A DNA stretch of 64,000 bases from Escherichia coli (GCF_003018255.1 NZ_CP027440.1); one strand, 5' to 3'. Positions 15,296 through 64,000 are shown, numbered from the stretch's first letter. Numbers and translations are program-made. Notes: generated by a model from the sequence alone, not told the origin.

Positions 15296-16124
15296 ACGCA
15301 CACTCAGTCGCATCGGTTTTTACTGCGGGCTGGCGCTGTTTCTCATCATCACGCTGTTTCCGTTTTTTGTGATGCTGATGACCTCGTTCAAGAGCGCAAA
15401 AGAGGCGATCTCGCTGCATCCTACGCTGCTGCCGCAACAGTGGACGCTGGAGCATTATGTCGACATTTTTAACCCGATGATTTTCCCGTTTGTCGACTAC
15501 TTCCGTAACAGCATGGTGGTGTCGGTGGTTTCATCCGTGGTGGCGGTATTTCTCGGCATTCTCGGAGCTTACGCGCTTTCCCGCCTGCGCTTTAAAGGCC
15601 GGATGACCATCAACGCCAGCTTTTACACGGTGTACATGTTCTCTGGCATTTTGCTGGTGGTGCCGCTGTTCAAAATCATCACCGCGCTTGGTATTTACGA
15701 CACCGAGATGGCGCTGATCATTACCATGGTGACGCAAACCCTGCCCACCGCCGTGTTTATGCTGAAAAGCTACTTCGACACCATCCCTGATGAGATCGAA
15801 GAAGCGGCGATGATGGATGGCCTCAACCGTCTGCAAATCATCTTCCGTATCACCGTGCCCCTGGCGATGTCCGGGCTGATATCCGTGTTCGTCTACTGCT
15901 TTATGGTGGCGTGGAACGACTATCTGTTTGCGTCGATTTTCCTCTCCAGCGCCAGCAATTTCACCTTACCTGTGGGACTGAACGCGCTGTTCAGTACGCC
16001 TGATTACATCTGGGGACGGATGATGGCGGCCTCGCTGGTGACCGCATTGCCGGTGGTGATTATGTACGCGCTTTCGGAACGTTTTATTAAGAGTGGTTTG
16101 ACCGCCGGTGGCGTGAAGGGCTAA
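15282..16124 (+). CDS. ycjP: ABC transporter permease (MalG-like)
   Basis: 280-aa polytopic ORF overlapping the ycjO 3' end; EAA-type loop (EEAAMMDGLNRLQ). Confidence 0.85.
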   Translation: MATNKRTLSRIGFYCGLALFLIITLFPFFVMLMTSFKSAKEAISLHPTLLPQQWTLEHYVDIFNPMIFPFVDYFRNSMVVSVVSSVVAVFLGILGAYALSRLRFKGRMTINASFYTVYMFSGILLVVPLFKIITALGIYDTEMALIITMVTQTLPTAVFMLKSYFDTIPDEIEEAAMMDGLNRLQIIFRITVPLAMSGLISVFVYCFMVAWNDYLFASIFLSSASNFTLPVGLNALFSTPDYIWGRMMAASLVTALPVVIMYALSERFIKSGLTAGGVKG

Positions 16125-49974: not shown

Positions 49975-50050
49975 TTGCCGGATGCGACGCTGGCCGCGTC
50001 TTATCCGGCCTCCATAAGAGTAGCCCGGTAAGCTTGCGCATCGGGCGCTA
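49975..50050. repeat. REP/BIME palindromic units between convergent dbpA and ttcA
   Basis: gccggatgcgacgctggccgcgtcttatccggcc and gcccggtaagcttgcgcatcgggc. Confidence 0.6.
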
Positions 50051-50056
50051 TCCGGG

Positions 50057-50992
50057 TTATTTCACTTCAACCACATTCAGCCGTAACTCATCCAACTGAT
50101 TTTCATCTTCTTCAGGCTGCCAACCCGCCGGTTGTAGAGGGATCTCTTCGCGATCAAACGCCAGATCACCCCCGTTAACCACTTCAGAACCGTGGGTAAT
50201 ACCTTTGAAATCGAACAGGTTGGTATCGCACAGATGCGACGGCACCACATTCTGCATCGCGCTGAACATCGTCTCGATACGCCCTGGATAACGTTTATCC
50301 CAGTCACGCAACATGTCAGCAATCACCTGACGTTGCAGGTTAGGCTGTGAACCGCACAGGTTGCACGGAATAATCGGGAACGCTTTTGCATCGGCAAAGC
50401 GCTGAATATCTTTCTCGCGGCAGTAGGCCAGCGGGCGAATCACGATATGTTTGCCATCATCGCTCATCAGTTTCGGAGGCATACCTTTCATCTTGCCGCC
50501 GTAGAACATATTTAAGAACAACGTTTGCAGGATATCGTCACGATGGTGACCCAGCGCGATCTTCGTCGCTCCCAGTTCCGTTGCGGTACGATAAAGGATA
50601 CCGCGACGAAGACGAGAACACAGTGAGCAAGTGGTTTTGCCCTCCGGAATCTTCTCTTTCACGATACCGTAAGTGTTCTCTTCCACAATCTTGTACTCAA
50701 CGCCCAGCTTTTCAAGATACTCGGGCAGAACGTGTTCCGGAAAGCCCGGTTGCTTTTGATCGAGGTTAACAGCCACCAGCGAAAAATTGATTGGCGCGCT
50801 TTGCTGCAAATTGCGCAGAATTTCCAGCATGGTATAGCTATCTTTACCCCCGGAGAGGCAAACCATGATGCGATCGCCTTCTTCAATCATATTGAAGTCA
50901 GCAATGGCTTCGCCCACGTTACGACGCAGGCGTTTTTGTAATTTGTTCAGGTTGTATATTTCTTTCTTCGTATTCTTTTGATTTTCTTGCAT
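50057..50992 (-). CDS. ttcA: tRNA-cytidine(32) 2-sulfurtransferase TtcA
   Basis: 311-aa ORF with PP-loop SGGKDS and CxxC pairs; Rac-type integrase immediately adjacent to its 5' end. Confidence 0.92.
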
Positions 50993-51043
50993 TATTTCAG
51001 TTCTCTGGTACTAAATGGGGCAAATTGGGGGCAAACTTTGCAA

Positions 51044-52279
51044 CTACGATAACCGCGCATTCAACATGGCTACCTGTTCGTCGTTCATGTCATCAATCCA
51101 CATACCGTAAATTTCATACACCATCTGCGCAGTTTCATGCCCCATCTGGCTGGCTATAAACGCCGGGTTCGCTCCTGCCGTCAACAGCCAGCAGGCAAAA
51201 GTATGCCGCGTATGGTACGGATTACGGCGGCGAATACCAGCACGTTTTACTGCTGCATTCCATCTCGCACCCAAACTGCTTACCGAGTAATAAGGTTTCT
51301 GTTTTCCGTTACACACTCTGGGCATGAAAACAAAATGCAGTTTTTGCTTTTCGGTTCTGCCGTACTCCCGATGATAAAAAGTGATTTCGCTTTTGCGATG
51401 ATGCCCGGTCAGTTTGTATTGCTCCTTCAGTGCTTCAAGAGCAGGCTGCAGTAGTGTTACCGTCCGGATCCCCGCATTTGTTTTTGGGGGACCGAACATA
51501 TCAAGTATCGTCAGGTTTCTTCTGACATTCACAACTCCCTTCTCGAAATCCACATCCTCCCACGCCAGAGCAGCCAGTTCCCCGTGACGAAGCCCGGAGT
51601 ATACGGCAAATTTCCACAAGTTCTGGCTCTGTCCTTTTTCACTTTCCATTAATGCATTGAATTCTGTTTTAGATAACGGGTCAGGCTTTATTCTGTTTCT
51701 CTGTAATTTTTTTACTCCTTCAAATGGTTTGGTTGATATAAATCCCGACTGATACGCAAAACGTAACAACGAACAGAGCAGGGCGATATAATTATCAACT
51801 GTGCGCACGGTTCTTCCTTTTTTGTTGGATCTTGGATTATCTAGGTAAAGCGTTTCTCCATGCAGCAGTTCATTCCGGTAGTTTAAGATATCGCTATAAC
51901 GAATATGCGATATCGGGGTACTCTCACAAATTATTATCCTGAGTGTTTTTAATTGTGATTTCGTTTTCTTCATTGTGTTTGTTGTTAACTCTGTTTCTTT
52001 AATTTTTGTCCAGATATCACAAAGCTCCCCGAACGTTTTTATGACCCTCGTTGTCACCATTTTTGCCCCAGTGCTGGACTGGGGAAAACGTCTTAAATAC
52101 TCAAACTCACCGGAATTGATTTCATGAACTATCAACGCTCTTAAATTCCCGGCTTTTTTAATGTTACTGTTAGTAACCTCCCAGCCTTTCAATGTTTCCC
52201 GACATCGTTTTCCTCGAAACATGAACCAGATGCGAATGTATTTACCTCGAATCTCGACACCTGTTGGTAATTTAGACAT
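51044..52279 (-). CDS. intR: Rac-type prophage integrase (tyrosine recombinase)
   Basis: 411-aa ORF with C-terminal catalytic region (...HTRHTFACWLLTAGANPAFIASQMGHETAQMVYEIYGMW...). Confidence 0.9.
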   Translation of the reverse strand: MSKLPTGVEIRGKYIRIWFMFRGKRCRETLKGWEVTNSNIKKAGNLRALIVHEINSGEFEYLRRFPQSSTGAKMVTTRVIKTFGELCDIWTKIKETELTTNTMKKTKSQLKTLRIIICESTPISHIRYSDILNYRNELLHGETLYLDNPRSNKKGRTVRTVDNYIALLCSLLRFAYQSGFISTKPFEGVKKLQRNRIKPDPLSKTEFNALMESEKGQSQNLWKFAVYSGLRHGELAALAWEDVDFEKGVVNVRRNLTILDMFGPPKTNAGIRTVTLLQPALEALKEQYKLTGHHRKSEITFYHREYGRTEKQKLHFVFMPRVCNGKQKPYYSVSSLGARWNAAVKRAGIRRRNPYHTRHTFACWLLTAGANPAFIASQMGHETAQMVYEIYGMWIDDMNDEQVAMLNARLS

Positions 52280-52280
52280 A

Positions 52281-52496
52281 TCATGAGTCTTTGATAAACT
52301 GATTTATCTTTGGATAGTTGTACCAGATAATTCCTCGCTTACTGTCTGGCTTCCCTAAAGGAGATACTCGTTTGAAGTGGAAGCCTTCCACCCAACAGTT
52401 CTGGCGGTATGCTTCAATTTGTCTGGCCCCCAGACCAGTGCGAAGCATCAGGCCGTATTCAACCATCCACTCTTCATTAAAGATTACTTGTGCCAT
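52281..52496 (-). CDS. xisR: Prophage excisionase (YdaQ/XisR-like)
   Basis: ORF 52281..52520(-); start at [21 protein letters not shown] (71 aa); 1 nt upstream of the int start. Confidence 0.8.
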
Positions 52497-52595
52497 CGCA
52501 TTACCTCTGGCAGGCGCCAATGTTAGACTTAAATTGACGCCCGATGTTGATTATTAATAATCAGCTATGAAGTTTTAATTTGAATACAATGCAAT

Positions 52596-52856
52596 TCACG
52601 AGGACTGAAGTTTCTCGCAATTAAAATTTATCAGTTTTACTTTCTGCTCTCTGGAAACGCCTGCTTCTTTTTTACCTGAGAGCATTTTTTCGCATTCTGA
52701 TTTAGTTAGTTTATATTTTGAATATCTTGTCCAGTTAGTAGGAGTGCCACCTTCCTTTTCAATAGTGGCGGTAATTTTATACATGAACACCTCCATTATT
52801 ATTTCCAGTGGTTCGTTTATTCCATCTTTCGAGTGCTTCTTTTTCACTTCCACCAT
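52596..52856 (-). CDS. ydaC: Rac prophage protein YdaC-like (DUF1187); start codon uncertain
   Basis: ORF containing MYKITATIEKEGGTPTNWTRYSKYKLTKSECEKML; synteny with int/xis/lar. Confidence 0.6.
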   Translation of the reverse strand: MVEVKKKHSKDGINEPLEIIMEVFMYKITATIEKEGGTPTNWTRYSKYKLTKSECEKMLSGKKEAGVSREQKVKLINFNCEKLQSS

Positions 52857-52971
52857 AACCGGTTCGGGATTCGCATCCGTTACACTTCGCTCGGTAATAT
52901 CCTGAAATGGCTTTCACCGTTACTGATGGACAACCACAAAATGGACATGGTTTAACATTGTCATATCTCAT
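52777..52971 (-). CDS. ralR: Restriction alleviation protein Lar (RalR)
   Basis: ORF 52777..53010(-); start at MRYDNVKPCPFCGCPSVTVKAISGYYRAKCNGCESRTG (64 aa, zinc-ribbon-like Cys pairs). Confidence 0.8.
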   Translation of the reverse strand: MRYDNVKPCPFCGCPSVTVKAISGYYRAKCNGCESRTGYGGSEKEALERWNKRTTGNNNGGVHV

Positions 52972-53027
52972 AATTTTTCTCATAAAAAATATTTCAAGTT
53001 GGCGGTGCATTACACCGCCAGGCTGAA

Positions 53028-53843
<816 letters not shown>

Positions 53844-53909
53844 ATTTTATAACCCAGAACGGGCGTCAGAAATGACGCCTTTTTTATTGCAGAAAAGCGA
53901 GAGGTAATT

Positions 53910-54509
53910 ATGCGTAAACTTTATGCCGCCATTTTGTCCGCAGCCATTTGTCTGGCCGTATCCGGTGCGCCTGCATGGGCGTCTGAACATCAGTCCACGC
54001 TGAGCGCGGGGTATCTTCATGCCCGGACGAACGTTCCCGGCAGTGATGATCTGAACGGGATTAACGTGAAATACCGTTATGAGTTTACGGACACACTGGG
54101 GATGGTGACGTCATTCAGCTATGCAGGAGACAAGAATCGTCAGCTGACCCGTTACAGCGATACCCGCTGGCATGAAGATTCCGTTCGTAACCGCTGGTTC
54201 AGCGTAATGGCGGGGCCGTCTGTGCGCGTGAATGAATGGTTCAGCGCGTATGCGATGGCGGGTGTGGCTTACAGCCGTGTGTCGACTTTTTCCGGGGATT
54301 ATATCCGCGTAACTGACAATAAGGGGAAAACGCACGATGTGCTGACCGGAAGTGATGACGGTCGCCACAGCAACACGTCTCTGGCGTGGGGGGCTGGCGT
54401 GCAGTTTAACCCGACCGAATCCGTGGCCATTGATATTGCTTATGAAGGCTCCGGCAGTGGTGACTGGCGCACTGACGGTTTCATCGTGGGTGTCGGTTAT
54501 AAATTCTGA
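53910..54509 (+). CDS. lom: Lom-like outer membrane protein (Ail/Lom/OmpX beta-barrel family)
   Basis: 199-aa ORF with signal peptide (AICLAVSGAPAWA) and C-terminal ...VGVGYKF. Confidence 0.85.
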   Translation: MRKLYAAILSAAICLAVSGAPAWASEHQSTLSAGYLHARTNVPGSDDLNGINVKYRYEFTDTLGMVTSFSYAGDKNRQLTRYSDTRWHEDSVRNRWFSVMAGPSVRVNEWFSAYAMAGVAYSRVSTFSGDYIRVTDNKGKTHDVLTGSDDGRHSNTSLAWGAGVQFNPTESVAIDIAYEGSGSGDWRTDGFIVGVGYKF

Positions 54510-54528
54510 TTAGCCAGGTAACACAGTG

Positions 54529-54557
54529 TTATGACAGCCCGCCGGTTCAGGCGGGCT
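54529..54557 (+). terminator. Rho-independent terminator after lom
   Basis: Hairpin gcccgcc-ggttcag-gcgggc followed by tttttt. Confidence 0.7.
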
Positions 54558-54567
54558 TTTTTGTGGG

Positions 54568-57500
54568 GTGAATATGGCAGTAAAGATTTCAGGTGTACTG
54601 AAAGACGGTGCAGGTAAACCGGTACAGAACTGTACAATCCAGCTGAAAGCAAAACGTAACAGCACCACGGTGGTGGTGAACACGGTGGCCTCAGAAAATC
54701 CGGATGAAGCCGGGCGTTACAGCATGGACGTTGAGTACGGTCAGTACAGCGTTATTCTGTTGGTGGAAGGATTCCCGCCGTCACATGCCGGGACCATCAC
54801 CGTGTATGAAGATTCCCGACCCGGTACGCTGAATGATTTTCTCGGTGCCATGACGGAGGATGATGCCCGTCCGGAGGCTCTGCGCCGTTTTGAACTGATG
54901 GTGGAAGAGGTGGCGCGTAACGCGTCCGCGGTGGCACAGAACACGGCAGCCGCGAAGAAATCAGCCAGCGATGCCAGCACATCAGCCCGTGAGGCGGCAA
55001 CCCATGCGACTGATGCTGCAGATTCAGCACGTGCAGCCAGCACGTCAGCCGGACAGGCCGCTTCGTCGGCTCAGTCAGCGTCTTCCAGCGCAGGAACGGC
55101 ATCAACAAAGGCCACTGAAGCCTCAAAAAGTGCTGCCGCTGCAGAGTCCTCAAAAAGCGCGGCGGCTACCAGTGCCGGTGCGGCGAAAACGTCAGAAACG
55201 AATGCGGCAGCGTCACAACAATCAGCAGCCACTTCTGCATCCACCGCGACCACGAAAGCGTCAGAAGCTGCCACCTCAGCCCGGGATGCGTCGGCCTCAA
55301 AAGAGGCAGCGAAATCATCAGAAACGAACGCATCATCAAGTGCCAGTAGTGCAGCTTCCTCGGCAACGGCGGCAGGAAATTCCGCGAAGGCCGCAAAAAC
55401 GTCTGAGACGAATGCAGATAACAGCGCACAGGCGGCAGCAGACTCACAAACTGCATCAGCAAACTCCGCGACAGCAGCCAAAAAATCAGAAACCAACGCG
55501 AAAAATAGCGAGGCAGCAGCAAAGAGCAGCGAAACCAACGCTAAAGCCAGCGAAACTAATGCTAAATCCAGTGAAACAAACGCGGCGAAATCTGCGGCGG
55601 ACGCACTTAATTATCGCAACCAGGCGCAAGTAATTGTTGGCGATAATATCGGTCTTGGTGAAGTTGCCATGACCTGCACTGATATCTCTGTTGAGCCATC
55701 AGGTTATATTGGATTTGTCAGGATTTACATCTCAGCGAAAGGTTATCCATCAGTAGCGTCTAGTGCCGGTGATAATCTTATTTCTGGTTATATAGTTAGA
55801 TCAGAAGTGTCAACAAAAAGATATTCCGGTCTATTTGTTGGTTCAGATACAAAATCATTGTATTCGTACATTTACAGCCAAAGTTCTGGCCCGCAATGGA
55901 TACGTCATACCCGCAGAGATGAATTAAGCCGCTTTGGTCAAAATGAATCAACAACTCGTATGTATGGTCCAACTGGTGATCGTTTCTTTGAAATCCATAC
56001 TAACGGGAGTTGGGGAGTTTATGATTCTTCTTCTGGACAATGGTCTCCGTTAGGTTTAGCCCAGGGCGGTACTGGTGGAAGAACTATCGAGCAAGCACGT
56101 GCGAACTTGCGGGTAATGTATGAGCAAAAAGCTGGCCTTGCTAATACTGACCTAAACACCCTTACCGGTGAATATTCTGGTTTCTATCAACAACCAACGA
56201 GCGCTTACGCAACAGAAGAATTAAATTACCCAATCGGTCTGGCGGGCGCTTTAATAGTGCTCCAAACGAGAGCCAACACTGCTTCTTCCTGCGTTCAGGT
56301 GTACTACCCTTATAATAATCCGGGAATTACTTATAGACGAATATATGAAGGAGGAAGCGGTACCTGGTCTGAATGGAAGAGAGATGTATCAACAGAAAGG
56401 GTTGAAGAGGGAAAAGAAACAACTTACGTATATTCTACGTATTCTTCAGGCGCACCACGCTTACAGGTTTCCAAATCTGGTTTGTGGGGTTGTCATAATG
56501 GCACTGGCTGGTTGCCATTAGCTGTTGGGCAAGGAGGTACAGGTGCGACAACAGTAGAAGATGCGCGAAACAACTTAAGTCTTGGCGAAAGTAGCGCAGT
56601 TAAATTTAAAAACCTTACTTTAACCGAAGCGCTCGACACGACATTAGGACTGCTTACAAAAACAGGACGAGACTGGAACACGCAGCATACTGATAACATT
56701 AATAAATTTATACCAATTGCAGGCAGTACAAACGGCCCGGCAGGTTCTATGGTTCTTGGCGGCATTCATGTTCAATTTAGTAAAAATTATGCTGTGCAGT
56801 TCGGAGGCCGCAATTCCGGTTTTTGGGGAAGAACAATTGAAAATGGAACGACGCAGGAATGGAAGAAATTACTAACAGTAGACGATCTCAATTCATCTAC
56901 CGATCTTGCTGTCAGGTCATTAACCACATCTAACCCGGTAAAATCTGGCGGAGGGCGAATTGATGTCCTTGGAAGCACGTCAGACTATAGCAAAATGGAT
57001 TGCTTTGTACGTGGGTTTGATAGCACCGGTAATTCTCTCGCGTGGGCGTTGGGTTCATCAGTCGGCGTAAGTAAGATGCTGTCGCTAAAAAATTTCTTTA
57101 GCGGAGCTGAGATACTGTTAAATGGTAATGACGGCGCGGTTCAACTCAAAACAGGTGCTGTTAACGGGGCTAAAGCGCAGGCGCTCACTATCAACAAGGA
57201 TGAGGTTAACTCAACTGTTGATTTAACTCTTACAAAACAAACAGGGACTGGAAATCGTTTTGTTTTACAGAACTTAGGTAATACAGAACTATCATTTGCC
57301 GCAAAAGTATGGGGATCAAGTGATCGACAAAACGTTTTTGAGGTTGGAACGTCTGCTGCGTATCTGTTTTATGCGCAAAAAACGTCAGCAGGCCAGTTGT
57401 TTGATGTAAATGGCGCTATTAATTGCACAACGCTGAATCAGTCATCAGACCGCGACCTTAAAGACGATATTCTCGTTATCAGCGACGCGACGAAAGCAAT

Positions 57501-57879
57501 CCGTAAAATGAACGGATACACCTACACGCTCAGGGAAAACGGGATGCCTTATGCTGGCGTTATTGCACAGGAAGTAATGGAGGCGATACCAGAAGCTGTG
57601 GGATCGTTTACTCATTACGGTGAAGAGTTGCAGGGACCAACGGTTGACGGCAATGAATTACGTGAAGAAACACGTTATCTGAATGTTGACTACGCCGCCG
57701 TGACGGGGTTACTTGTTCAGGTCGCCCGTGAAACAGATGGTCGCGTTACCGCGCTGGAAGAGGAAAACATAACGCTACGTAAAAATCTGGCAACAGCAGG
57801 CACCCGGATCAGCACTCTGGAAAATCAGGTAAGCGAACTGGTTGCACTTGTCGGGCAGTTAACAGGAAGCGAACATTGA
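54568..57879 (+). CDS. stf: Side tail fiber protein (lambda Stf-like N-terminus, Ala/Ser/Thr-rich repeat shaft, C-terminal intramolecular-chaperone/S74-like domain)
   Basis: 1103-aa ORF; N-terminus MAVKISGVLKDGAGKPVQNCTIQLKAK...; SETNA-type repeats across 55050-55620; C-terminus SSDRDLKDDILVISDATKAIRKMNGYTY plus coiled coil. Confidence 0.85.
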   Translation: MNMAVKISGVLKDGAGKPVQNCTIQLKAKRNSTTVVVNTVASENPDEAGRYSMDVEYGQYSVILLVEGFPPSHAGTITVYEDSRPGTLNDFLGAMTEDDARPEALRRFELMVEEVARNASAVAQNTAAAKKSASDASTSAREAATHATDAADSARAASTSAGQAASSAQSASSSAGTASTKATEASKSAAAAESSKSAAATSAGAAKTSETNAAASQQSAATSASTATTKASEAATSARDASASKEAAKSSETNASSSASSAASSATAAGNSAKAAKTSETNADNSAQAAADSQTASANSATAAKKSETNAKNSEAAAKSSETNAKASETNAKSSETNAAKSAADALNYRNQAQVIVGDNIGLGEVAMTCTDISVEPSGYIGFVRIYISAKGYPSVASSAGDNLISGYIVRSEVSTKRYSGLFVGSDTKSLYSYIYSQSSGPQWIRHTRRDELSRFGQNESTTRMYGPTGDRFFEIHTNGSWGVYDSSSGQWSPLGLAQGGTGGRTIEQARANLRVMYEQKAGLANTDLNTLTGEYSGFYQQPTSAYATEELNYPIGLAGALIVLQTRANTASSCVQVYYPYNNPGITYRRIYEGGSGTWSEWKRDVSTERVEEGKETTYVYSTYSSGAPRLQVSKSGLWGCHNGTGWLPLAVGQGGTGATTVEDARNNLSLGESSAVKFKNLTLTEALDTTLGLLTKTGRDWNTQHTDNINKFIPIAGSTNGPAGSMVLGGIHVQFSKNYAVQFGGRNSGFWGRTIENGTTQEWKKLLTVDDLNSSTDLAVRSLTTSNPVKSGGGRIDVLGSTSDYSKMDCFVRGFDSTGNSLAWALGSSVGVSKMLSLKNFFSGAEILLNGNDGAVQLKTGAVNGAKAQALTINKDEVNSTVDLTLTKQTGTGNRFVLQNLGNTELSFAAKVWGSSDRQNVFEVGTSAAYLFYAQKTSAGQLFDVNGAINCTTLNQSSDRDLKDDILVISDATKAIRKMNGYTYTLRENGMPYAGVIAQEVMEAIPEAVGSFTHYGEELQGPTVDGNELREETRYLNVDYAAVTGLLVQVARETDGRVTALEEENITLRKNLATAGTRISTLENQVSELVALVGQLTGSEH

Positions 57880-57930
57880 TATCCTTCAAGCCCTGAAGGA
57901 GGCTGTTCCTGGTACGTTCAGACTGTTGTT

Positions 57931-58086
57931 GAGCTGGAAATCGCAACGGAGGAAGAAACTTCGTTGCTGGAAGTCTGGAAAAAGTATCGGGTGTTGCTGA
58001 ACCGTGTTGATACATCAACTGCACCTGATGTTGATTGGCCAGCAGCACCGAAGTGTAATTCATTAGAACTCATCACCTGTGAATAA
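57931..58086 (+). pseudogene. tfa: tfa (tail fiber assembly protein) 3' remnant, copy 1
   Basis: Frame 57883-58086 translates ...[50 protein letters not shown], matching the last about 40 aa of lambda Tfa; no N-terminal part. Confidence 0.6.
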
Positions 58087-58689
58087 TATCTGTTTTTGAG
58101 TAAGTTAGTAATAATCACTTAAATGTGTTATGAGTTTGTTGAGGCGTGATTTGCAATAGGATAGAGAGTACGATTATGGATTGAGAATAAGAAAGCGCCA
58201 TGAAAGAGTTTCATGGCGAGTACATAAACGTACAAAATATGATGAAAGTAGAGTGGCATAAGCCACTATGTTAACTTATAGCAATAGGGAAGATAAGTAA
58301 ATAATATTTCTTGAGTATAGTGTAAGTCGTTCATTGTAAAGCGTTAATGTTATCTATATTGTTTATCTTAAAATAAGGTGTATAAACCAAACTTTTGAGC
58401 TAAAAGTTTAAAGAGTATTAGTGCAAAAATAATGTTTAATAAGATAATCAATTTGCTTTGTATCTTCATTTCGAAAGATTGCTAAGTAACGTTAATTACC
58501 AAAACGATAGATCAGAATTATCTTAGAGTCAATGACTTTAGGTTTGTTTATAATGTAAATATTTTCTATTTGTTATAAGTTTTCTTAATATAGTCACCCA
58601 TGCAACTTGTTCCGTGTGGAGATTAAAGGTTAAAATTTAATGCGAAGATGGAATTATATTATATTTGTTATAATTAATTTAACCTTAAC

Positions 58690-58785
58690 ATCGTTGCTGG
58701 CGGCATGGAAGAAATATCGGGTCTTGCTGATGTCGTGTTGGCACTTCCTTAGTGCCGGATATCGAGTGGCCAGCTGCACCTATAG
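58690..58785 (+). pseudogene. tfa: tfa 3' remnant, copy 2 (frameshifted)
   Basis: [13 protein letters not shown] and, in another frame, PDIEWPAAP; diverged paralog of the 57931-58086 fragment. Confidence 0.5.
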
Positions 58786-58987
58786 GGTAAAAATATAGTT
58801 CTATATGGGAGCGCTATTTTTACAATATAAATGCTGAACGGAAGAATCTAACCAGTTACAAAAAACATAGTTATGTAATCCAGTTGCCTGGGCATGCGTG
58901 TGATGTTGATAGCTATTACTGTATCTTCCGTTCACTTACCTTATTGTGAACAGTTATATATAATTTGATCTGCTCTTATTCAGCCTG

Positions 58988-60190
58988 CTAGGCTGCTGTA
59001 AATCTTCGATACTTTCTTAACATAAAGATCATGATTAGAATAATTGAAAGTAAGTAAACAATCCAAATGGTGATATTTCGTTCAATTAAAAAGCTACCAA
59101 TTCCGCCGATCACTGAAGGAATCACCAGAGAAGCGGCCCCCATTAACGCAGATGTGGCACCCAGACTGGTACGTTGGCTGGACATAGTTAGGTAAGTATA
59201 AAGTGATTCGAACATACCTCCGGCAAACATCAAAACAATGAAGAATAATATAAAAACATTGACATGATGAACGAATATTATTAGCGGAGTGCACAATACG
59301 ATAAATGAAGCAATGAGCTTCAGCCATAAACTCAAAATTTGTGGTGCAGACCGCTTCTTAAGTAGTTTACCTGATAGTGCTGCTCCCAGCAGAAGGAATC
59401 CTCCAATAATTGATGAGATAACACCAAATTGCGTAGATGAGTATCCATACTTAACCATCAAAATAAATGGGGAAGCTGTGACATAACAATAAATTAGAGA
59501 GAATGAAAGTCCAAGAGAAAGGCAAGGTAGATAAAATCTTGGTTGCTTACTTATCTCTTTGTACGTAAGAAATGATGATTTTAGTGAATATGTAATCCGT
59601 TTTTTATGACTGAGTGTTTCAGGGAAGTTAAAATAGACATACGTTAATGTTACAACAGAATATCCTAATATCATTAGAAAAATTGCACGCCATCCCCATA
59701 CATCATTAATTATTCCTCCCAGCAGTGGAGAAGCAATAGGCACGACACCTTCAATAGTTATGATAATAGCGTACAGTGTAGCAGCCACTGAACCGCGTGT
59801 TACATCACGAACGGCACTAATTGCTGTAACCAGAGTTATTGATATAGAAAGCCCCTGTATGATGCGTATTGTAAGAAACGTACCCAATCCGGTCGAGAGT
59901 GTGAGGCAATATGTTGTCACACAATAAATAATAGCACCTGAAAGCATAATTCTTCGACGACCAATAGAATCAGATAATGGGCCAAAAATTAGCTGTCCAA
60001 AACCTATACAAAGGGTATAAACCATGATAGACAATTGCATGGACGGGATGTTTTGTCTAAATTCTTTTGCGATGTCAGGAATTGAAGGCAAATAAGTGTC
60101 CACACCTAGAATGCCCATAATAGTCAGCAGCGATAGGCCAATAGTAAAGAAAAGTATATTCTTTCTGTGAATAACAACTTGTGATTTCAT
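58988..60190 (-). CDS. MFS transporter, 12-TMS DHA1-like (Bcr/CflA-type) exporter; AT-rich
   Basis: 400-aa polytopic ORF with MFS motif region (GPLSDSIGRRRIMLSG); strongly AT-rich codon usage relative to the core genes. Confidence 0.75.
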   Translation of the reverse strand: MKSQVVIHRKNILFFTIGLSLLTIMGILGVDTYLPSIPDIAKEFRQNIPSMQLSIMVYTLCIGFGQLIFGPLSDSIGRRRIMLSGAIIYCVTTYCLTLSTGLGTFLTIRIIQGLSISITLVTAISAVRDVTRGSVAATLYAIIITIEGVVPIASPLLGGIINDVWGWRAIFLMILGYSVVTLTYVYFNFPETLSHKKRITYSLKSSFLTYKEISKQPRFYLPCLSLGLSFSLIYCYVTASPFILMVKYGYSSTQFGVISSIIGGFLLLGAALSGKLLKKRSAPQILSLWLKLIASFIVLCTPLIIFVHHVNVFILFFIVLMFAGGMFESLYTYLTMSSQRTSLGATSALMGAASLVIPSVIGGIGSFLIERNITIWIVYLLSIILIMIFMLRKYRRFTAA

Positions 60191-60952
60191 TATTTATCAC
60201 CATGAATAAATTAAAAGAATGAAAAAAACTCCATTTAAATGGAAGGAGGTGGATAATTATCGTGTAGGCAATACAACAGAGTTGAAAAGAACTGTCAAAC
60301 TTTTAACTCAAAAAAGTGAGATGTGAATCACAGACATAAAAATCATCTTTTTCAGCCCTATGGTTCAGTTAAATTTGATTGTTATCGTACGAAGGTTTGA
60401 ACGTGTGTGTGCGTATGCGGTATTTTTTCTTGCGAGTGCCGGAGTTATGAGAGCGTTGTATTAACCTTCATAATCTGACCTATTCAATTGATTCCAGTAC
60501 ACCAATGGGTATTTTGGTGTTATGGTATGTGACTCCAAATAAAATGGAGCGTGAACTGATAGTTGTGCGAACAAAAGTCGGACTAGAAACCGCTCGGGTA
60601 CAGTGGCGAATTGGAGTTGGCGACCCAAACTGACCTAGGAACAATCGTTGCAGATCGGACGATTAATTTCATCAGAAATTCCTCGCTAAAAGGTGGCTAT
60701 CACTGTGATGTTAACGTATCTAATTTGTACAAGAAATTTCTGCGGGGGAAAATGAAACCGCAGACTCGTTGTATGCAAAAACGTGCTGCGGCTAACTGGT
60801 GAACTTTCGATAGTGCGGGTATTGAATGATTTCTAGGCGTTATCGATTTTACGTATTTTTTGCATGATAGAATTCGTACCTCCTCCCAACGACCTTCCAT
60901 GGCTTTCCGGACTTCTGTAGGCCGGCGGACGATGCTGTCCTCGGATGTTGTG

Positions 60953-61810
60953 CTAATTGGGTGATAACAGATCCTGTGTATGGGAGTTTCCCTTTGTGCG
61001 TGCGTTGATGCTGGTAACGGTAAACGTCATGATGAACACGACCGCGAATAAGACGACAATCGTCGGAGCTGGTGCGCTGTCGATAAAAAAGGACAACCAG
61101 ACACCAGTCATTGACACTATTACCGATATGCCAGTCGCCAGTAGGAGCGCAATATGAAAGCGTTGTGTCAGGAGTACCGCAATGGCGCCAGGCGCTATGA
61201 GCAGAGAAATGGAGAGAATGATACCTACCGCTTTCAGCGTCGCCACAATGGTCAGAGAGACCATGCACAGCAGCCCATAATGCAGCCATCTCGTATGCAA
61301 ACCGCTTACCTGCGCCTGTTGATAATCAAAGCTGAACAGCAAAAAATCCCGCCATTTTACGCTAATAACAAGTGTAACCAGCCCGGCAATAATCATCGTC
61401 TGGATTATATCGCCGATGGTTATCCCGAGCATGTCGCCGAAAAGAATATGGTCAAGATGTACGTCTGGTTTGACTGCAATATACAAGATCAGACCTGCGG
61501 CAAACATGCCAGAAAAAACAATCCCCATCACTGTATCTTGCTTGATTCGGCTGTTGTCTTTCAGGTATCCCGTCGCCACCGCGCAGAATACTCCGGCGAC
61601 GAATGCCCCTGTAGCTAAAGGTAACCCCAGAATCCAGGCAAGCACGATGCCAGGAAAAACTGCATGACTCATCGCGTCACCCATCAGTGCCCAACCTTTC
61701 AGGACCAGAAAGACCGACAGCAGCGCACAGGGTATGGAAACTACCAGTGAAATCAGCAGTGCGTGACTCATAAAGGTGAACTGCAGTGGCTCCAGTAATA
61801 ATGCCATCAT
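60953..61810 (-). CDS. sitD: Mn/Fe ABC transporter permease SitD
   Basis: 285-aa polytopic ORF, last gene of the sit operon. Confidence 0.85.
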   Translation of the reverse strand: MMALLLEPLQFTFMSHALLISLVVSIPCALLSVFLVLKGWALMGDAMSHAVFPGIVLAWILGLPLATGAFVAGVFCAVATGYLKDNSRIKQDTVMGIVFSGMFAAGLILYIAVKPDVHLDHILFGDMLGITIGDIIQTMIIAGLVTLVISVKWRDFLLFSFDYQQAQVSGLHTRWLHYGLLCMVSLTIVATLKAVGIILSISLLIAPGAIAVLLTQRFHIALLLATGISVIVSMTGVWLSFFIDSAPAPTIVVLFAVVFIMTFTVTSINARTKGNSHTQDLLSPN

Positions 61811-62664
61811 GAGCGATCCTCCAGCGCCTTATGCGCACGCCGACGATTTGCCAAAAGCCCATGGGTGGGCGCAAAGACAAATGCTAAAAGAAACAGCAGT
61901 GTCTGCGCCACCACGATGATTCCACCTGTCGCGCCGTCCAGAAAGTAACTGACCCACGAGCCGAGGAAACTGGTTACACTGCCAATAGTTACAGCAATCA
62001 TGAGCAGGCGGGGAAAACGATCGGTTAACAACCATGCTGTTGCACCGGGAGTCACCACCAGACAGATCACCAGAAAGGCACCAACCGTTTGCAGCGCCGC
62101 AACGGTCGAAACCGACAGCAGGGTGAAGAAGAGGAGTTTTAATCTGCCCGGATGCAATCCAATAGCACGGGCGTGATTCTCGTCGAAAAAGGTCACCATA
62201 AGATCTTTCCATTTGAAAAAAAGCACGATGATCGAGAGAATGCCAATGATAGTGAGTTGCAGGATATCCGCCGGATCGATTGCCAGAATATTGCCCAGGA
62301 CGATGGTCTGAATGTTCACAGATGTCGGGTTCAATGACACCATAAACAGCCCCAGGCCAAAAAAGGATGAGAAGATCAGGCCGATGATGGCATCTTCTTT
62401 TAAGCGGGTGCGTTGGTTAAGAAACAGCATGCTGCCCGCAGCCAGTCCGCCGGAAAAGAAGGCTCCCAGAGAAAACGGAAGCCCCAGCATATATGCTCCC
62501 GCAACACCCGGGACAATAGAGTGCGACAACGCATCGCCAATCAGCGACCAGCCTTTTAGCATCAGATAGCATGACAGGAAAGCGCAGAGACCGCCGACCA
62601 TCGCCGAGACCCACATCGCATTGAGCATATATTCATAGCTGAAGGGTTCCAGTAGCACGTTCAT
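61807..62664 (-). CDS. sitC: Mn/Fe ABC transporter permease SitC
   Basis: 285-aa polytopic ORF overlapping sitD by 4 nt. Confidence 0.85.
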
Positions 62665-63488
62665 CTTTCTTCCCTCTGCACCGCTGACGGTCGATGAGCC
62701 ACAAAAGGGCGTTCATCGTCAGTAATAATGCTTTCTTCCGAGCCGTTAAGTGTGACATGGCGCAGTACGCCGCTAAAAGCCAGCTCCAGGTTCTCGGCTG
62801 TAAAAGTGGTGTCTGTCGGCCCGCTTGCCAGGACGGTGCCTTTGACCATGACCGTATAATCGCAAAATGTCGTGACGGATCCGAGATTGTGTGTTGAGAC
62901 AAGCATCGTTTTGCCTTCCGCGCGTAACTCCCTCAACAGGCTGATGATTTTGGCTTCGGTTTTCACATCAACGCCAGTAAAAGGTTCATCCAGCAGGATC
63001 ACATCACCCTGCTGTGCAATCGCTCTCGCCAGAAAGACGCGTTTCTTTTGTCCACCGGAAAGCTCGCCGATTTGTCGATGGCGAAAATTCACCATATCGA
63101 CACGTTCCAGCGCATCGGTGACAATTTGACGATCCCTCTTTTTGGCGATACGCAACATACCCATATGCCCATAGCGGCCCATCATCACCACATCTTCCAC
63201 CAGTACAGGAAATGACCAGTCAACCTCTTCTGACTGAGGGACGTAGGCAACCAGGTTTTTCTGTAACGCCTGTCGCGTGGGAATACCCAGAACAGATATC
63301 TTTCCGCTGGTCAGACGCACAAATCCCATAATCGCTTTAAACAACGTCGATTTTCCGGAACCGTTTACCCCAACCAGAGCGGCAATAGATCCACTTGGTA
63401 CTGTGAAGGATGCATCGCGCAGTGCTGTGTGCCCGTTACGCCAGGTGACAGTAACATCATTAACGACAATGCCTGCAGATTGCATCAT
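62661..63488 (-). CDS. sitB: Mn/Fe ABC transporter ATP-binding protein SitB
   Basis: 275-aa ORF with Walker [10 protein letters not shown], signature LSGGQKKRV, Walker [12 protein letters not shown]. Confidence 0.88.
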
Positions 63489-64000
63489 TATTTCTCCCTT
63501 TTCCCGGCTTTAATTCCCTGTACCAGCGTACTGGTAGTAACCTTAAGAAGGTCGATATACGTCGGTACCGGGCCGTTTTCTGTGCTCAGGGAATCGACAT
63601 AGAGCACACCGCCGTAGTGTGCGCCGGTTTCACGCGCAACCTGACGCGCTGGTTTATCGGAAATCGTACTCTCGCTAAAGACTGCCGGGATATGATTTTT
63701 CTTAACTATATCAACAACCTTACGTACCTGTTGCGGTGTTCCTTGTTGATCGGCATTAATCGGCCACAGATAAAGCTCTTTTAGCCCCAAATCGCGTGCG
63801 AGATAAGAAAAAGCCCCTTCACTGGTGACCATCCACCGCTGATTCTCAGGGAGTTCCGTAATCTGCTTACGCAGGGGGGCAAGGGTTTGGGTAATCTTGG
63901 CTTTATAAGTATCGGCATTACGTTGGTAGGTTTGTGCATTAGCGGGATCGTATTTTATCAACGCATCACGAATATTATCGACGTAAATCAGAGCATTATC
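63488..64000 (-). CDS. sitA: Mn/Fe ABC transporter periplasmic binding protein SitA, C-terminal part only; 5' end beyond the window end
   Basis: Minus-strand frame open to the window edge; cluster A-I SBP sequence; stop overlaps the sitB ATG (ATGA). Confidence 0.8.

Follow-up and report, generated by a model that had tools for sequence, protein, structure and literature searches.

The right end of the Escherichia coli DNA analyzed here, a stretch of 64,000 nucleotides that we call the window and whose numbering is used throughout, carries a gene for a transporter of the major facilitator superfamily (MFS) followed by genes of the sitABCD operon, and both follow the tail fibre genes of a decayed prophage in ttcA (Table 1). 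SitABCD is an ABC transporter that takes up Mn2+ and Fe2+ with the help of a binding protein, and sitABCD contributes to Mn/Fe acquisition and to oxidative-stress resistance in extraintestinal pathogenic E. coli (ExPEC), avian pathogenic E. coli (APEC) and Shigella. The relation of these two groups of genes, referred to here as the cargo, to the prophage is the subject of this analysis.

The MFS gene and the sit genes

An earlier reading of this DNA, the original prediction, described an AT-rich MFS gene and a complete sitDCB with a partial sitA, and both descriptions are borne out by the open reading frames (ORFs) and the protein families. The sit genes form a four-gene operon, in which the frames overlap by 4 bp and sitA and sitB share 1 bp, and sitA is partial solely because the window ends. 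SitB passes the NCBIfam equivalog model for the Mn/Fe ABC ATPase (NF011630 PRK15056) with 593.6 bits against a cutoff of 393. The best NCBIfam models for SitC and SitD are the metal ABC permeases SloB/AztB (E 1e-55) and those for the SitA fragment are the Mn binding lipoproteins EfaA/SloC/MntC (E 1e-33), in each case below the equivalog cutoffs of these models; the three proteins do belong to the metal ABC-3/cluster A-I permease and binding-protein families. The sit DNA is 99.4-99.9% identical to sitA-D loci annotated in RefSeq, and SitB, SitC and SitD match the lengths of the RefSeq proteins of relatives, with no frameshifts in their genes.

The MFS protein narrowly passes the model of the Bcr/CflA subfamily (TIGR00710, 204.5 bits against 200.9), which covers residues 15-389 of 400, end to end. 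The hydropathy profile, from a crude scan, would fit about 12 membrane spans, and the hallmarks of DHA1 transporters can be found in the sequence: GPLSDSIGRRR lies between spans 2 and 3, span 5 contains PLLGG, and span 1 has an acidic residue. Subfamily model, spans, motif A (GxLxDxxGRR) and the antiporter motif of transmembrane span 5 together place the protein in the Bcr/CflA (DHA1) group. Because of these hallmarks, and because MdfA is the closest solved structure by sequence (E 6e-26), a proton-coupled exporter is the best inference for its function.

Another reading takes the gene for bcr, which confers resistance to bicyclomycin, in line with the annotation of the isolated Salmonella phage FSL SP-016, whose 'bicyclomycin efflux system' is 88% identical to the protein in the window. 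The passing of TIGR00710 fits this reading, and so does the naming of a bcr homologue in the description of the Salmonella phages (PMC3728262). Yet, the Bcr equivalog itself fails (NF008314 PRK11102, 163.3 bits with a cutoff of 303), as does every other named equivalog in NCBIfam (TcaB, CmlA, EmrD and MdfA). Identity falls to about 30% beyond a small group from E. coli, Salmonella and Arsenophonus, and the authors of the Salmonella phage work state that no phenotype was tested (PMC3728262). That the gene is bcr is therefore very unlikely, and we prefer to describe it as a Bcr/CflA-type exporter.

The gene is part of a cassette that is 81% identical at the nucleotide level, over 1.9 kb, to the end of a Salmonella enterica prophage, where the MFS gene adjoins tail-fibre-assembly (tfa) genes, pagK and dinI, near pepN. 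The E. coli and Salmonella genes differ at 33 first, 24 second and 94 third codon positions, and this excess at the third position indicates purifying selection on the MFS protein. At the sitD side the cassette ends in a decayed invertase: K-12 PinR gave no match between the MFS gene and sitD, and the remnant, which is of the Gin/Hin/Pin-e14 type, was recognised via the Salmonella locus. A 63-amino acid ORF at 60611-60802, for which a phrogs search gave no match, is part of this pseudogene. The cassette may have been formed once, in a tail-fibre inversion region.

Several other observations regard this cassette. A truncated invertase accompanies the MFS gene in FSL SP-016 too. The only non-phage homologue of the MFS gene is chromosomal, in Arsenophonus apicola (L008, 9486-14138), with 65% identity, and it adjoins a 1550-amino acid pentapeptide-repeat/SopA-like gene and type III secretion genes. 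Between 60755 and 60791, 37 bp show 89% identity to a K-12 Rac sequence just left of the attR region of that prophage (MG1655 ~1434728-1434764). Upstream of the MFS gene, the palindrome CTCCATTTAAATGGAG and a run of T after it raised the idea of a conserved leader or attenuator. This was rejected: the 205 bp in question are 83% identical to Salmonella, compared with 87% for the coding sequence.

Attachment sites and distribution of the cargo

The region beyond the end of the window can be followed in near-identical relatives. The right arm of strain TUM12355 is 99.94% identical to the window from 57746 to 64000 (~6.25 kb). In this strain and in strain 18AR0366 the core TTGTTCAGGTTGTAT of a ttcA-derived attR is found between sitA and uspF, and in both of them, as well as in K-12, the core is preceded by GGGGCAAAA repeats, which are of the kind expected of integrase arm sites; repeats resembling GGGGCAAAA also adjoin int in the window (51013-51040). 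In the relatives, the ttcC/attR core and the arm repeats are found before uspF, at 200-380 bp upstream of sitA, which is where the original prediction proposed to look for an attR with a ttcA-derived repeat. Homology to the K-12 Rac prophage resumes 202 bp upstream of the sitA start, inside the annotated right end of Rac (in TUM12355 coordinates at 15725, the start of sitA being at 15523). Since attR and its arm repeats stand between sitA and uspF in these relatives, the MFS gene and sit are located inside the attachment boundaries of the prophage, the attR of this strain being one that we infer from the relatives. If the strain resembles TUM12355, the whole element would measure ~13.8 kb.

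Inside these boundaries, the cargo lies between the tail fibre genes and att, with stf and the tfa fragments immediately upstream, which is the position of a moron. The original prediction had placed the cargo right after the tail-fibre region, and this part stands, as stf ends at 57879 and tfa fragments follow; it is to be corrected in that tfa is not intact and that a decayed Gin/Pin fragment separates the MFS gene from sitD. Both cassettes also occur in isolated phages, sit in 4A7, 1H12, Perceval and others, and the MFS gene in FSL SP-016.

In the sit module, homology to the cultured phage 4A7 sets in precisely at 60933, which is 20 bp beyond the stop codon of sitD, and this phage and other lambdoid phages are 99.4% identical to the window there. 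In TUM12355 the module extends to 137 bp upstream of the sitA start, giving 3.6 kb with 99% identity to phages. Fur and MntR repress SitABCD when metals are plentiful. Upstream of sitA in TUM12355 we found the MntR palindrome AAACATAGCAACGGCTATGTTT with 0 mismatches (chance expectation 0.00) and a predicted Fur box with 2 mismatches (chance expectation 0.03), so that the boxes anticipated in the original prediction are present in relatives. Both are located 33-95 bp upstream of sitA, within the module, and sit therefore carries its own metal-responsive control region. It was shown that 70% of the lambda-like phages induced from infant-gut E. coli have sitABCD, for which a fur box was also noted (Mathieu 2020, PMC6969025), and that the active prophage Perceval expresses sit as a moron in strain LF82 (Misson 2023, PMC9928086).

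Counted over 5426 complete E. coli genomes, sit is present in 2355 (43%), at 1680 chromosomal and 1022 plasmid places, and the junction sitA-attR-uspF in 494 (9%). Many genomes have ttcA next to uspF, an empty site with no sit, and these match the junction probe from the att core onward only. The K-12 records likewise match only the attR/uspF part of the probe, and sit is absent from K-12, as the original prediction had stated. Further chromosomal copies of sit occupy the same relative position in a lambdoid prophage integrated at icd, while the plasmid copies (97.7-98.0% nucleotide identity) are flanked by IS1 and Tn3 remnants. The MFS gene is found in 35 of the genomes (0.65%), always on the chromosome, with at least 99.4% identity and always joined to sitD; elsewhere among the ttcA prophages with sit, tfa and sitD have nothing between them or are separated by a diguanylate cyclase gene. 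Apart from Arsenophonus, the only other named relative, the gene's close relatives are in E. coli and Salmonella prophages, and every E. coli copy is fused to the sit cargo of a ttcA prophage. It is a tentative suggestion, and one that we hold with little confidence, that the gene belongs to a small phage-disseminated efflux lineage, which could give a specific resistance or export phenotype to enteric bacteria of poultry, wildlife and humans, among which phages would spread it.

The MFS-sit cargo was compared in four strains (that of the window, strain 41, TUM12355 and 18AR0366), all of which have differently decayed ttcA prophages with both cassettes; the losses affect tail genes, head genes or the whole centre. 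The int gene is seen in the window and in 18AR0366, while the stretches examined in TUM12355 and strain 41 exclude the left (int) end.

One possible option is that sit is an ordinary chromosomal island beside uspF that merely abuts an unrelated prophage. The GC content of the sit part (50.4%) equals that of the core genome and is close to that of the rest of the window (50.3%), whereas the MFS gene has 37.7% and the zone of tfa fragments before it 34.8%, and the plasmid copies flanked by IS1 indicate that sit can be mobile without phages. However, such an island would not explain why attR and the arm-type repeats are found between sitA and uspF, why unoccupied ttcA-uspF sites have no sit, or why cultured phages have the module in the same place, and we consider it extremely improbable. 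As attL is in the window and relatives have attR between sitA and uspF, sit is not outside a phage context, and with the junction in 494 of the 5426 genomes and many empty sites, it is not present in all E. coli at this site. The proposal that sit was acquired, or is maintained, through the prophage is thus supported, as the att boundaries enclose the cargo in relatives and the empty sites have no sit.

Another option is that the prophage arrived free of cargo and served as a landing pad, the cassettes being recombined later into the defective resident from another prophage, an incoming phage or a plasmid. Several observations can be read in this way. Compared with K-12 Rac, sit looks as if it had cleanly replaced ~35 bp immediately inside the right end of Rac, the K-12 homology being found at 60755-60791 and resuming at 15725 of TUM12355. 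The MFS cassette is present in just 35 of the 494 sit-bearing ttcA prophages, the tfa and invertase fragments that flank it could act as recombination substrates, and the same sit module exists in phages with a different integrase. Yet, full-length and apparently complete ttcA prophages (L002 and that of enteroaggregative E. coli (EAEC) 042) bear sit at the same spot, which makes arrival with the phage the simplest history, and a cargo-free arrival is rather unlikely. The two histories are not exclusive: co-arrival and later recombination are compatible, and either keeps the cargo phage-associated.

The explanation that fits these data best, and that is very probably correct, is a decayed Rac-type prophage in the 5' end of ttcA that carries two independent cargo cassettes between its tail fibres and attR. 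Some points weigh against it. For this strain, three parts lie beyond the window and have to be read from relatives, namely attR, the promoter of sitA and the first 44% of that gene. Among the complete E. coli genomes of the collection, none covers at least 80% of the region 50000-64000; strain 41 and TUM12355 match it only in the right arm. The host-like GC of sit (50.4%) means that composition alone gives no mark of foreign origin. Finally, the keeping of the cargo across differently decayed prophages fits the retention of useful cargo but is no proof of it, and it could also reflect shared ancestry together with the positions of the deletions.

The prophage remnant and a proposed mechanism

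The prophage can be assigned to the Rac type by its IntR/Xis pair beside ttcA and by the 26-bp att core, and its int-xis region is 97-99% identical at the nucleotide level to Rac-type phages (Rac-SA53 and vB_EcoS phages). No tRNA genes were found in the window, which excludes integration at a tRNA site, and the 24 kb further left of the ttcA region are plain core genome. In a consensus scan, promoter-like sites were fewer than in shuffled sequences, and the number of terminators was within the range of the shuffles.

Table 1. Positions of the features of the ttcA prophage and its cargo in the window
Feature	Position	Strand	Remarks
ttcA	50057-50992	-	5' end holds attL core
attL core	50944-50969	.	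TTGTTCAGGTTGTATATTTCTTTCTT, inside ttcA 5' end; 25/26 bases as in the att annotated in phage Rac-SA53; repeated between sitA and uspF in relatives
Integrase IntR	51044-52279	-	411 amino acids, intact; phrog_1, 237 bits
Excisionase	52281-52520	-	Intact; phrog_539, 94 bits
DUF1187/ydaC-like gene and ralR toxin	52596-53010	-	phrog_5753, phrog_599
RalA small RNA	52600-52778	+	Rfam RF02694, 217 bits (gathering score 170)
recT 3' fragment	53028-53337	-	phrog_148 RecT
Tail gene J 3' end	53324-53843	+	phrog_2148/496, tail fibre C-terminus
lom	53910-54509	+	phrog_108 Lom, 365 bits
Side tail fibre stf	54568-57879	+	1103 amino acids; phrog_6578 tail fibre, 1247 bits
tfa 3' fragment 1	57916-58050	+	tblastn with K-12 TfaR
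tfa 3' fragment 2	58691-58781	+	tblastn with K-12 TfaR
MFS cassette	58931-60839	-	MFS coding sequence, upstream region and invertase fragment; common to Salmonella prophages and FSL SP-016
MFS coding sequence	58988-60190	-	Intact, 400 amino acids, Bcr/CflA-type
Gin/Pin-type invertase 3' fragment	~60430-60800	+	Between MFS gene and sitD; frameshifts and stops
sit module	60933-64000, continues beyond window	-	NCBIfam and phage identity
sitD	60953-61810	-	285 amino acids, metal ABC permease
sitC	61807-62664	-	285 amino acids, metal ABC permease
sitB	62661-63488	-	275 amino acids, Mn/Fe ABC ATPase
sitA, partial	63488-64000, on past window end	-	3' 513 of 915 bp (56%)

The centre of the prophage is missing, and the scar of an internal deletion can be seen at 53028-53843, where a recT fragment is fused to the 3' end of J, leaving a Rac-type prophage without everything from recT to the end of J. 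On the recT side, homology to 18AR0366 stops at 53337, and on the J side homology to the L002 prophage begins at 53324, so that the two parental homologies share 14 bp (53324-53337). This arrangement suggests that the recT::J junction arose by a microhomology-mediated deletion.

Two further observations were made in the remnant. The RalR/RalA type I toxin-antitoxin pair survives intact (52600-53010), with RalA antisense to the DUF1187 gene and abutting the ralR 3' end. Between 58060 and 58690, the two same-strand tfa 3' fragments bracket ~630 bp with a GC content down to ~30% and no ORF longer than 43 amino acids. Matches to Rfam IS009 at the tfa fragments were below threshold and were rejected, as they are simply tfa 3' ends.

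A mechanism that fits the decayed Rac-type prophage with two cassettes can be proposed as follows. Recombination in the tail-fibre/att-proximal region would carry both cassettes from one temperate phage to another, and they would have reached the chromosome with the ttcA prophage or by recombination into it. Their slot is the non-essential 'b-region' or moron position, a part of the phage where insertions are tolerated. Replication, head and most tail genes have been lost, with the integration end and the cargo end kept, and the ~13.8-kb remnant is probably still excisable. The sit module (3.6 kb) is predicted to encode an Mn2+/Fe2+ importer, in which SitA would be the periplasmic binding protein, SitB the ATPase and SitC and SitD the permeases, and it would be transcribed from its own promoter region with MntR and Fur operators; with such operators, sit expression would follow the metal status of the host and not the phage cycle. 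The MFS cassette (1.9 kb, AT-rich) would encode a predicted 12-span DHA1 proton-coupled efflux pump, together with a dead invertase fragment. Both cassettes read in the direction opposite to the late genes and could be expressed from a repressed or dead prophage. The expression of the cargo, its transport substrates and its selective retention are what we infer from the sequence.

Significance and comparison with known systems

The layout of sit in ttcA prophages (EAEC 042 in 2010) and in phages (Mathieu 2020) and the phage-borne homologue of the MFS gene (Moreno Switt 2013) are already published, so that nothing about sit is new here and little about the MFS gene, which in E. coli is strictly linked to sit. 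Carriage by temperate phages is established as one route by which the sit trait spreads, and the window adds one example, a strongly decayed ttcA prophage that keeps its integration module and its cargo. Should the MFS protein export a drug or a metabolite, phages would carry one more efflux gene, which would bear on the debate over how often they carry resistance determinants.

The sitABCD of ColV/IncF virulence plasmids is the same four-gene operon, but IS1 and Tn3 remnants flank it instead of phage genes. The 'PAI sit' of Shigella and E. coli, which shares this operon, has four insertion-site clusters and is credited to Fisher 2009 (as cited in PMC7545054).

In the cultured lambdoid phages (4A7, 1H12, the Lambda_ev series and Perceval) the sit module is 99% identical to that of the window, lies between the tail fibres and int/att and has the Fur/MntR boxes. 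Unlike the remnant in the window, these phages are active, and 4A7 at least has an integrase and a site of the icd type; the MFS gene is in none of the listed records of sit-carrying phages. The record ON032529.1, 'Salmonella phage SPF_0923', was considered as evidence from a virion and rejected, as it contains uspF, ompN and part of nifJ and seems to be a prophage prediction drawn too wide on an E. coli-like chromosome. In FSL SP-016 (Moreno Switt 2013, PMC3728262) the MFS gene is located between tail fibre genes and int/att, beside the truncated Gin/Pin fragment, as in the window; however, this Salmonella phage is Gifsy-2-like and lacks sit, and MsgA/DinI stand beside its cassette.

K-12 Rac shares with the remnant the integrase/excisionase family, the att site in ttcA, ralR/RalA, the lom/stf/tfa genes and an attR region with GGGGCAAAA repeats and a ttcC fragment, but it has no sit and carries pinR-ynaE-ynaM where the window has the MFS and sit cassettes. 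Prophage 042p3 (ROD21) of EAEC 042 (Chaudhuri 2010, PMC2808357) is integrated at the same site and has the same order, J-lom-stf-tfa fragment-sitDCBA-attR-uspF-ompN. It is ~50 kb long, apparently complete and without the MFS cassette, whereas the window would hold a ~13.8-kb remnant that has this cassette and the recT::J deletion.

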